Shown: positions 3,001-6,000 of the stretch, piece by piece
Numbering within the stretch: position 1 is the first letter of the stretch
Layout: every line of letters begins with the position of its first letter
Source: a virus
Lineage: Duplodnaviria; Heunggongvirae; Uroviricota; Caudoviricetes
Length of the DNA: 8,365 nt
IMG/VR virus record: IMGVR_UViG_2531839668_000012
Span: 1-8,365 of that record
Reading direction: 5' to 3' (one strand)
Made by a program: the position numbers

Positions 3001-6000
3001 CACACTGAATCATGGCTTTATGCCGTAACATCCGTTTGGGATGCGACTGCCACGGCCCCGTGATTTCTCTGCCTTCGCGGGTTTTGAATGGTTCGCGGCG
3101 GCATTCATCCATCCACTCGGTAACGCAGATCGGATGATTACGGTCCTTGCGGTAAATCCGGCATGTGCAGGATTCATTGTCCTGCTCAAAGTCCATGCCA
3201 TCAAACTGCTGGTTTTCATTGATGATACGGGACCAGCCATCAACGCCCACCACCGGAACGATGCCGTTCTGCTTGTCAGGGAAGGCGTAAATTTCTTTCG
3301 TCCACGGATTAAGGCCGTACTGGTTGGCGACGATCAACAATGCGATGAACTGCGCATCGCTGGCATCGCCTTTAAATGCCGTCTGGCGAAGAGTGGTGAT
3401 CAGTTCCTGTGGGTCGACAGAATCCATGCCGACACGTTCAGCCAGCTTCCCTGCCAGCGTTGCGAGTGCTGTACTCATCCGTTTTATACCTCTGAATCAA
3501 TATCAACCTGGTGGTGAGCAATGGTTTCAACCATGTACCGGATGTGTTCTGCCATGCGCTCCTGAAACTCAACATCGTCATCAAACGCACGGGTAATGGC
3601 TTTTTTGCTGGCCCCGTGGCGTTGCAAATGATCGAAGCATAGCGATTCAAACAGGTGCTGGGGCAGGCCTTTTTCCATGTCGTCTGCCAGTTCTGCCTCT
3701 TTCTCTTCACGGGCGATCTGCTGGTAGTGACGCGCCCAGCTCTGAGCCTCAAGACGATCCTGAATGTAATAAGCGTTCATGGCTGAACTCCTGAAATAGC
3801 TATGAAAATATCGCCCGCGAAATGCCGGGCTGATTAGGAAAACAGGAAAGAGGGTTAGTGAATGCTTTTGCTTGATCTCAGTTTCAGTATTAATATCCAT
3901 TTTTTATAAGCGTCGACGGCCTCACGAAACATCTTTTCATCGCCAATAAAAGTGGCGATAGTGAATTTAGTCTGGATAGCCATAAGTGTTTGATCCATTT
4001 TTTGGGACTCCTGGCTGATTAAGTATGTCGATAAGGCGTTTCCATCCGTCACGTAATTTACGGGTGATTCGTTCAAGTAAAGATTCGGAAGGGCAGCCAG
4101 CAACAGGCCACCCTGCAATGGCATATTGCATGGTGTGCTCCTTATTTATACATAACGAAAAACGCCTCGAGTGAAGCGTTATTGGTATGCGGTAAAACCG
4201 CACTCAGGCGGCCTTGATAGTCATATCATCTGAATCAAATATTCCTGATGTATCGATATCGGTAATTCTTATTCCTTCGCTACCATCCATTGGAGGCCAT
4301 CCTTCCTGACCATTTCCATCATTCCAGTCGAACTCACACACAACACCATATGCATTTAAGTCTTTCGAAATTGCTATAAGCAGAGCATGTTGCGCCAGCA
4401 TGATTAATACAGCATTTAATACAGAGCCGTGTTTATTTAGTCGGTATTCAGAGTCTGACCAGAAATTATTAATCTGGTGAAGTTTTTCCTCTGTCATTAC
4501 GTCATGGTCGATTTCAATTTCTATTGATGCTTTCCAGTCGTAATCAATGATGTATTTTTTGATGTTTGACATCTGTTCATATCCTCACAGATAAAAAATC
4601 GCCCTCACATTGGAGGGCAAAGAAGATTTCCAATAATCAGAACAAGTCGGCTCCTGTTTAGTTACGAGCGACATTGCTCCGTGTATTCACTCGTTGGAAT
4701 GAATACACAGTGCTTATTCGTACTAATAAAATACCCAATTTTCTGTTTCTTGGTTGTGTCCAAAGTTATATTCAATATCTGGTGTTGATGTATCAATATT
4801 CTTCATACCATCAACAAGAGTTGATACAACAGCCAAATCTTGTTTGATTCTCATTAAATGGTATTTCTTCCGGCGCAATAAACTTTCAATGGCAAGTTTC
4901 TTCGTTGGGAATGCAAAAGATCTTTCTGCATTTTTTGCTACTTTCTTAATTGCATATCTATTTCTCCTTTGTTTCCATTCCTGTAACCACTGATTTGGTG
5001 CTGGTTTAAAATTAACAATCCAATGCGCAGGAACCAACCATGCATAATGCTCTGTCTGATGAAAAGCTATATATTGAAGTGCGAATATTTTTATCCCATC
5101 TTCTTCAACTGTCGCCTGGAATCTCCAGAAAACAGGCATTCCATCATGTTCAGTTTCTGATTCAGGAAAAGGTACGCTCCATGATTTTGTCATATCTCAC
5201 CTCAAATAAGTGGTTTGCTGCCTAATTTCATTTTCTGGCGACCAACACAAGTCACCTCGCCGTCAGTTGTTTTGATTTCCGGTAGCCTGCCGCGTAAATG
5301 GCTACGTTTGGAAGACATACACCAGTTTCTGGTTGCTTATGTCCAAACTCATTCGCGTACCGGAACAATCGCGATCTGCATGACTTGCTGGTTGATTATT
5401 ACGTGTTGGGGGAGACGTTCATGGCGTTGGCACGGAAACATGGGTGCTCTGACACCTGTATAGGTAAACGCCTTCACAAAGCGGAGGGGATTGTTGAAGG
5501 CATGCTGATGATGCTGGGAGTGAGGCTTGAGATGGATCGGTATGTTGAGCGTGAATTGCCGGGAGGGAGAACCTCTGTATTTTATCAGCGAAAAAATAGT
5601 TTACGATCGTAAAAATCTGCATATCATGATAAGAGTGGTTACATTGCCACGCAGTCGAACCCGCCGATGCGCGGGTTTTTTTGTACCCCGAATCCTGTGA
5701 GCTATACGGAAAGTACACAGAAAGGAAGGTGCGACCGTAATTAATAACAAAATCTTAAAAATCGCATATAGCACTATTAGTTTTCTAAATATTGTATATT
5801 TTAAGTATTGCAGGATAACCCTGTAACGAAGTTTGCGTAACAGCATTTTGCTCTACGAGTTTGCCAGCCTCCCCCAGTGGCTGGCTTTTTTATGTCCGTA
5901 GCGTCAAAGCAGCAATGGCGCTAGGGCGTCGTGCAATTGGCGTTGAGCTGGAGAGCGGGCGTTTTGAGCAGACGGTCAGGGAAGTTCAGAATGTAGTCAG

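Follow-up and report, generated by a model that had tools for sequence, protein, structure and literature searches.

The 8,365-nucleotide window analyzed here (Caudoviricetes; positions 1 to 8,365 of IMG/VR record IMGVR_UViG_2531839668_000012) is a prophage remnant that carries, on its minus strand, a 156-codon open reading frame (ORF). Judging from its sequence and that of its relatives, this ORF is an intact copy of a real, constrained, and widespread phage gene. The gene is already known: it has been on record since the genomes of 933W and HK97 were determined, and it is annotated as a hypothetical protein in phages 933W, HK97, and Phi24B and in RefSeq. What is new in this analysis is the size of its family, the restriction of that family to phages, a confident structural model without a neighbor among solved structures, the consistent place of the gene behind the antiterminator gene N and before the first terminator, and the refutation of a link to nearby tRNA genes. 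As to function, our proposal is a tentative one that could well be wrong: an early host-directed accessory activity, either counter-defense or host takeover, exerted through a basic surface on nucleic acid or on an acidic partner.

At the DNA level, 933W L0079, Phi24B vb_24B_11c, and the corresponding gene of Min27 and of many Stx1 and Stx2 phages show 100% identity to the ORF. Its product is 100% identical to the L0079 protein and 99.4% identical to HK97 gp45, the two genes differing at four nucleotides. It also matches the phrog_1636 profile from residue 1 to residue 156 of 156 (E 2.7e-112) and, with these full-length matches to the named proteins and to the profile, belongs to their orthologue group (PHROG 1636). 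The gene was found in 598 of 5426 complete Escherichia coli genomes (11%), 593 of which hold a copy that spans 80% or more of the ORF. In an even sample of 30 of the E. coli records listed, every copy that spans most of the ORF was annotated as protein-coding, with the product given as a hypothetical protein. Full length is kept in orthologues at 55-85% identity, and purifying selection among them is strong, with pN of 0.18-0.30 per site while synonymous sites are saturated (pS 0.67-1.0). Although the copy in the window has lost its promoter, as a gene in decay might, the near-complete copies in almost all carrier genomes, the strong selection, and a confident fold prediction resting on real co-variation leave next to no probability for a decaying or meaningless reading frame.

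A literature search on L0079, vb_24B_11c, HK97 gp45, WP_000167595, NP_037731, AAD25424, and phrog_1636 returned no relevant paper among those searched. One preprint names both HK97 and gp45, but the gp45 mentioned there belongs to phage HK578. The sequence of the ORF was not found in the supplements of an accessory-gene screening paper.

An earlier note on this window had called the ORF an orphan, a label that does not survive the family searches. A word-indexed search gave about 30 relatives of 156-163 amino acids, all from Enterobacterales and 55-85% identical, and tBLASTN against phage genomes found proteins of 25-28% identity in Pantoea phage LIET2 and in a Vibrio phage. An exhaustive profile search recovered 453 cluster representatives at E<=1e-3, with 114 at E<=1e-10. 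Of the 150 family representatives listed, nearly all are single-domain proteins of 125-170 amino acids, and the members sort into PHROGs 1636, 13631, and 25384, all of unannotated function. The members in BFVD come from phages of Erwinia, Achromobacter, Rhizobium, Sinorhizobium, Delftia, Tenacibaculum, and Cellulophaga, and a pattern scan with the distant subgroup over 185,579 species genomes hit a single locus. The family is therefore mainly phage-borne, with members seen almost only in phages, and it is not confined to temperate ones.

The same note had not recognized the protein, and reference libraries gave the same answer. No match was found with the single protein in Pfam, NCBIfam, PADLOC, or PDB sequence searches, and nothing beyond chance when alignments of 20 and 149 sequences, or their members, were compared with these libraries. 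At E<=1, Pfam returned two sub-threshold chance matches only for the ORF product (Tmem26 and zf-H2C2). The defense profiles of PADLOC-DB 2.0 gave chance-level matches only, for the ORF product and for the 149 family members, which places the protein outside the defense and abortive-infection systems of that collection. A domain scan of two longer family members and of a set of direct neighbors was uninformative.

The protein (18.6 kDa, pI 9.1, no Cys) has an uneven distribution of charge. Its N-terminal third is acidic, residues 61-125 have a pI of 11.1 with 17 Lys/Arg against 4 Asp/Glu, and the tail is acidic and aromatic. A search for hydrophobic segments (19-residue Kyte-Doolittle) gave a highest mean of 0.56 and no candidate membrane segment. 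With 149 diverse sequences, AlphaFold modeled a compact soluble alpha/beta protein at high confidence (pLDDT 95.9, pTM 0.83), the C-terminal tail included; an earlier run with 20 close homologs had reached pLDDT 60 and was not used for the fold search. When compared with solved structures, the model gave no match and revealed no known DNA-binding fold. The predicted fold thus has no neighbor among solved structures, which falls short of proof that it is new. Over the 149 sequences, the best-conserved columns are G33, E/Q46-T47, K87 (97%), A101 (100%), K109, R/K83-84, R92, and R108, and they form a positive patch with no obvious catalytic constellation. Solubility, a basic charge, and conserved Lys/Arg argue for binding to nucleic acid or to an acidic partner and, for the same reasons, against a mechanism like that of the membrane protein SieB or of the DNA mimics.

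The place of the gene is best seen in intact phages. The order is pL/nutL, N, L0079, ea10/ssb, cIII in 933W, and N, gp45, terminator, cIII in HK97. These maps put the gene in the accessory slot between N and cIII, in agreement with the earlier note, which had assigned it to the ral/sieB slot. The lambda colinearity that the note described upstream also holds, with int, xis, exo, bet, gam, kil, cIII, and ea10 (DUF2528) all present. In the window, the N remnant, spacer, ORF, hairpin, and terminator (Table 1) are colinear with 933W and HK97, with N truncated. HK97 gp45, 933W L0079, and Phi24B vb_24B_11c are like the window gene in their place behind N, in the 3' hairpin, and in the terminator. 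The window copy differs by a deletion that took away pL, nutL, and the 5' part of N, the upstream half of the module. Alignment of HK97 with 933W shows a common block that runs from N through the ORF and the 12-bp hairpin to the intrinsic terminator. Similarity stops right after this terminator, which is the right edge of the mosaic module common to the two phages. N also precedes the gene in a Cronobacter prophage and in an ENA metagenome contig, both of which carry more distant orthologues.

Consensus scans of 933W put a pL-like promoter, nutL, N, and the ORF all before the first strong intrinsic terminator, and this terminator is also the first in HK97. Promoter-like sites that could serve the ORF itself occurred at chance frequency in scans of the window and of 933W. 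In intact lambdoid phages the gene is the first one behind N (or behind another arginine-rich gene of the N/Nun type), and no strong terminator of the pL operon comes before it. We therefore infer that it belongs to the immediate-early transcript and is made with N before antitermination is needed.

Eighty IMG/VR contigs that encode the identical protein were compared. A structured tail of 150 nt lies directly 3' of the ORF in nearly all of them. The 3' untranslated region in the window (4585-4722, minus strand) is unusually structured, with the 12-bp hairpin, a second, imperfect hairpin, and then the terminator, and it accompanies the gene in nearly every context. The RNA of 4585-4730 (minus strand) folds at -48.1 kcal/mol (z = -4.5). 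This structured region might stabilize or process the immediate-early transcript. The gene upstream varies among the IMG/VR loci and can be a 933W-type N, one of several lambda-like N alleles, a third type of N, or a Nun-like gene. In many loci the upstream lambda-like N ends in ...GSKPLI*, with its TGA stop codon inside the Shine-Dalgarno sequence, 8 nt before the ATG. The Nun-like gene was seen in locus L022 and 11 similar loci, where an arginine-rich protein of 109-114 amino acids ending in ...NPNKKWS is encoded about 130 nt upstream of the identical ORF. This protein resembles the HK022 termination factor Nun and not N; the record of phage PA28 annotates the Nun-like gene as N. HK022 Nun is made by the prophage, and if the upstream gene is Nun, the ORF might be co-expressed in those lysogens.

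Neighborhoods diverge further away from the E. coli phages. The Rosenbergiella orthologue opens an operon of RecT, YqaJ, and SSB, and in another phage type the gene opens an operon with a ParB helix-turn-helix (HTH) gene. Across loci the neighbors are early, recombination, methylase, and regulatory genes, and in 18 diverse loci no neighbor gene was conserved. In a Pfam scan of 131 neighbors from 14 of these loci, integrase, excisionase, and recombination domains were the only families to recur.

According to our proposal, synthesis of the protein would begin together with that of N, within the first minutes after infection or induction and ahead of any need for antitermination. It would act alone, because no conserved partner gene was found. 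Its conserved Lys/Arg surface would probably bind nucleic acid or an acidic host protein, and its role would probably be host takeover or counter-defense rather than exclusion of other phages. The last three are the least certain parts of the proposal, and the anti-defense role in particular is a plausible guess from position only. Several observations weigh against it. The Pfam, NCBIfam, PADLOC, and PDB searches found no characterized homolog that would support an activity. The immediate-early timing is inferred from promoter and terminator consensus scans, and N might be separated from the ORF by a Rho-dependent terminator. Prophages of Pectobacterium and Brenneria carry the orthologue at the far end of the early-left operon, beside xis-int and not behind N. 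The anti-restriction proteins Ocr and ArdA are acidic DNA mimics, unlike the ORF product, and a basic Lys/Arg surface would fit a phage-internal role on DNA or RNA equally well.

The main rival, possible if on balance unlikely, is that the protein serves the DNA or RNA transactions of the phage itself and is not directed at host immunity. It would then be a small accessory protein that binds nucleic acid and assists early transcription, antitermination, recombination, or replication. Besides the basic charge and the conserved Lys/Arg, the tight linkage to N in E. coli phages would suit such a role, as would the neighbors in distant phages, namely RecT, YqaJ, SSB, RecE, Rha, a replication initiator, and a ParB-type HTH protein. 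A family that is mainly phage-borne and spans distant host phyla would also be expected. However, the gene behaves as a dispensable accessory, being absent from lambda and many lambdoid phages and present in only about one in nine E. coli genomes; its place within the operon varies, no known DNA-binding fold was detected, and no partner gene is conserved. The host-directed proposal can also be put in a broader and more doubtful form, in which the whole family would be a new class of stand-alone immediate-early effector with a fold unseen in solved structures, neutralizing a widely conserved defense factor or host nucleic-acid-handling factor via its basic surface. This form would take in HK97 gp45, 933W L0079, and at least 450 related clusters, from phages of Proteobacteria and Bacteroidota.

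The earlier note had also considered the gene a candidate for exclusion or abortive infection. A prophage-expressed gene of this kind, protecting the lysogen in the manner of SieB, Rex, or Stk, would agree with the slot, which holds sieB in lambda and P22, with an AT-rich composition like that of many morons, and with the Nun-like gene upstream in 12 IMG/VR loci, given that HK022 Nun is expressed by the prophage. Nevertheless, the protein has no transmembrane segment, none of the 149 members matches PADLOC, and no promoter of its own stands above chance. In addition, relatives occur in phages without integration genes in the region examined, such as Pantoea phage LIET2, and bacterial genomes hold next to no members of the distant subgroup. 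The candidacy is weakened accordingly, and we give it a slim chance only.

The codons of the gene had suggested a different dependence. With a GC content of 35.7% (26% at third codon positions), the ORF is AT-richer than its flanks and than the window as a whole (48%). Five of its eight Arg codons are AGA and one is AGG (the other two are CGC and CGG), and ATA makes up three of nine Ile codons. The features measured in the earlier note (coordinates, strong Shine-Dalgarno sequence, low GC, six of eight Arg codons as AGA or AGG, three ATA) were all reproduced. The note had also called the gene dependent on rare codons and had pointed out that the tRNA trio nearby reads them. On this idea, translation of the gene would be gated, via AGA, AGG, and ATA, by the phage-borne ileZ-argN-argO tRNAs. 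The codon counts are correct, and the tRNA genes do lie in the window, 861 bp from the ORF start. However, this closeness was produced by a deletion from N to Q, and HK97 carries the gene, four nucleotides apart, with no tRNA genes at all. The rare codons are not conserved either, since AGA/AGG accounts for one of eight Arg codons in the Pectobacterium orthologue and none of seven in that of Brenneria. The same bias is present in ea10 and in the int gene of the window, where 15 of 27 Arg codons are AGA or AGG and nine codons are ATA.

The position of the tRNA genes leads to the same conclusion. In intact 933W they reportedly lie in the late region behind Q, and the order in the window (Q remnant, tR'-like terminator, tRNAs) fits that location. 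As late-region genes behind Q, they would be transcribed after an immediate-early gene. We consider gating by these tRNAs very improbable. The GC content of the gene is 1-12 points under its surroundings in every locus examined, and 4-12 points under in close Enterobacterales orthologues. Low GC is a compositional trait of this gene, and its rare codons reflect that AT-rich composition, not a need for neighboring tRNAs.

Table 1. Features of the window and of the ORF product, with the basis of each assignment
Feature	Position	Strand	Basis and remarks
Intrinsic terminator, GCCCTC-loop-GAGGGC and T-run	4590..4620	-	Terminator scans; a putative terminator is annotated at this spot in HK97
12-bp hairpin in the 3' untranslated region, 15 nt past the stop codon	4681..4708	-	Identical in HK97 and 933W
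156-codon ORF, ATG start	4723..5193	-	ORF listing; DNA as in 933W L0079 and Phi24B vb_24B_11c; protein WP_000167595.1 (RefSeq)
Shine-Dalgarno sequence GAGGTGA, three bases 5' of the ATG	5197..5203	-	Sequence read
Spacer (5194-5251) and 3' remnant of antiterminator N (5252 to ~5360)	5194..5360	-	Alignment with 933W and HK97
3' remnant of antiterminator Q, fused to the N remnant	5356..5613	+	Pfam Phage_antitermQ, C-terminal half only; RefSeq incomplete, missing N-terminus
Three tRNA genes, anticodons CAT, TCG, TCT	6054-6303	+	ARAGORN; the CAT gene is tRNA-Ile in RefSeq
Three-stranded antiparallel sheet, long strands	residues 19-30, 33-46, 50-55		AlphaFold model
Two short helices	residues 56-61, 66-74		AlphaFold model
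Short strand	residues 83-86		AlphaFold model
33-residue helix	residues 98-130		AlphaFold model

Except for two bases that it lacks, the window aligns end to end with the chromosome of E. coli O157:H16 strain 98-3133 (NZ_CP051001.1), where the remnant is integrated beside mlrA. Homology to 933W ends at about 5360, where the N-to-Q deletion has its left edge. According to BLAST, only 5193-5360 survives of a 3.8-kb stretch that in 933W holds the spacer between ORF and N, N itself, nutL, stk, cI, and the pR/pM operators; RefSeq annotates an incomplete N peptide, missing its N-terminus, at 5253-5321, and lists the N and Q fragments, which adjoin each other, as partial pseudogenes. A deletion from the middle of N to the middle of Q evidently removed pL, nutL, the immunity region, and the replication genes, and late-region tRNA genes therefore now lie near early-left genes. 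STECUZB006 is one other complete genome that matches across the junction, up to 7398; the other top matches end at 5360. Because its promoter is lost, the copy of the gene in the window is probably silent, or at least not expressed in the normal way, which has no bearing on the family at large. Read in another frame, the 58-nt spacer at 5194-5251 (minus strand) encodes ...VTCVGRQKMKLGSKPLI, the C-terminal end that N alleles of the lambda type have where they precede this ORF in other prophages. The spacer marks an old recombination joint inside N.

Other elements of the remnant were noted in passing. The cIII thermoregulator RNA element of lambda is intact at 4086-4144 (minus strand; Rfam, 88.5 bits). 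Stx phages have their toxin genes behind the ileZ-argN-argO tRNAs, whereas the remnant has, behind its tRNA trio (6388-6903, plus strand), a gene of the TerB family ("tellurite resistance") and one with DUF3927. Past the TerB-family gene, Rfam places the prophage small RNA AgvB (anti-GcvB) at 7266-7327 (minus strand, 96.5 bits) and, adjoining it, STnc100 at 7075-7265 (plus strand, 144.9 bits). Pantoea phage LIET2 also has a TerB-like gene, about 1.8 kb upstream of its distant homolog of the ORF product, which we take as coincidence. Compared with the current RefSeq record of strain 98-3133, the window is short of one base at about 2294 and of another at about 8342. The first splits exo into frames 2017-2304 and 2277-2696, where RefSeq has one intact exonuclease gene of 681 nt. 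The missing bases are probably a difference between assembly versions or a sequencing error.

Whatever its activity, the gene is a well-defined target for inexpensive experiments. It occurs in two lambdoid systems that are among the best studied, HK97 with its easy genetics and the medically relevant 933W/Phi24B. If its product is a counter-defense or host-takeover factor, it would be a protein class new to the field and relevant to the host range of Stx phages; if not, it would be an ordinary accessory gene. Should the broader reading, of the family as a class of stand-alone effectors, be true, it would bear on the establishment of Stx phages in new hosts, because every major Stx phage lineage carries the gene.

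Three known systems provide a frame for these proposals. The sieB genes of lambda and P22 occupy the same neighborhood as the window gene, between N and cIII. SieB is an inner-membrane protein with its own promoter, whereas the ORF product has no hydrophobic segment and no Pfam or PADLOC match. The DNA mimics Ocr, ArdA, and Arn act through acidic surfaces, and the charge of the ORF product, with its pI of 9.1 and pI-11 core, excludes DNA mimicry; a structural match was not found either. T7 Ocr is among the first genes expressed after DNA entry, and in its probable early expression the window gene may be likened to it.

The third system is Ral of phage lambda. The window protein is more than twice the size of Ral and has no sequence relationship to it (Pfam scan at E<=1); neither the ORF product nor any of the 149 family members matches the Ral or Lar_restr_allev models of Pfam. 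Pfam contains a Ral model, and Lar_restr_allev appeared in one of the Pfam scans. In lambda, the terminator tL1 lies between N and ral, whereas the scan of 933W shows no strong terminator between N and the ORF. Ral, which alleviates restriction, and the window gene are alike in place and kind: each is a small, dispensable accessory gene of the pL operon that occupies the slot just downstream of N, with expression that is early for Ral and probably so for the window gene.

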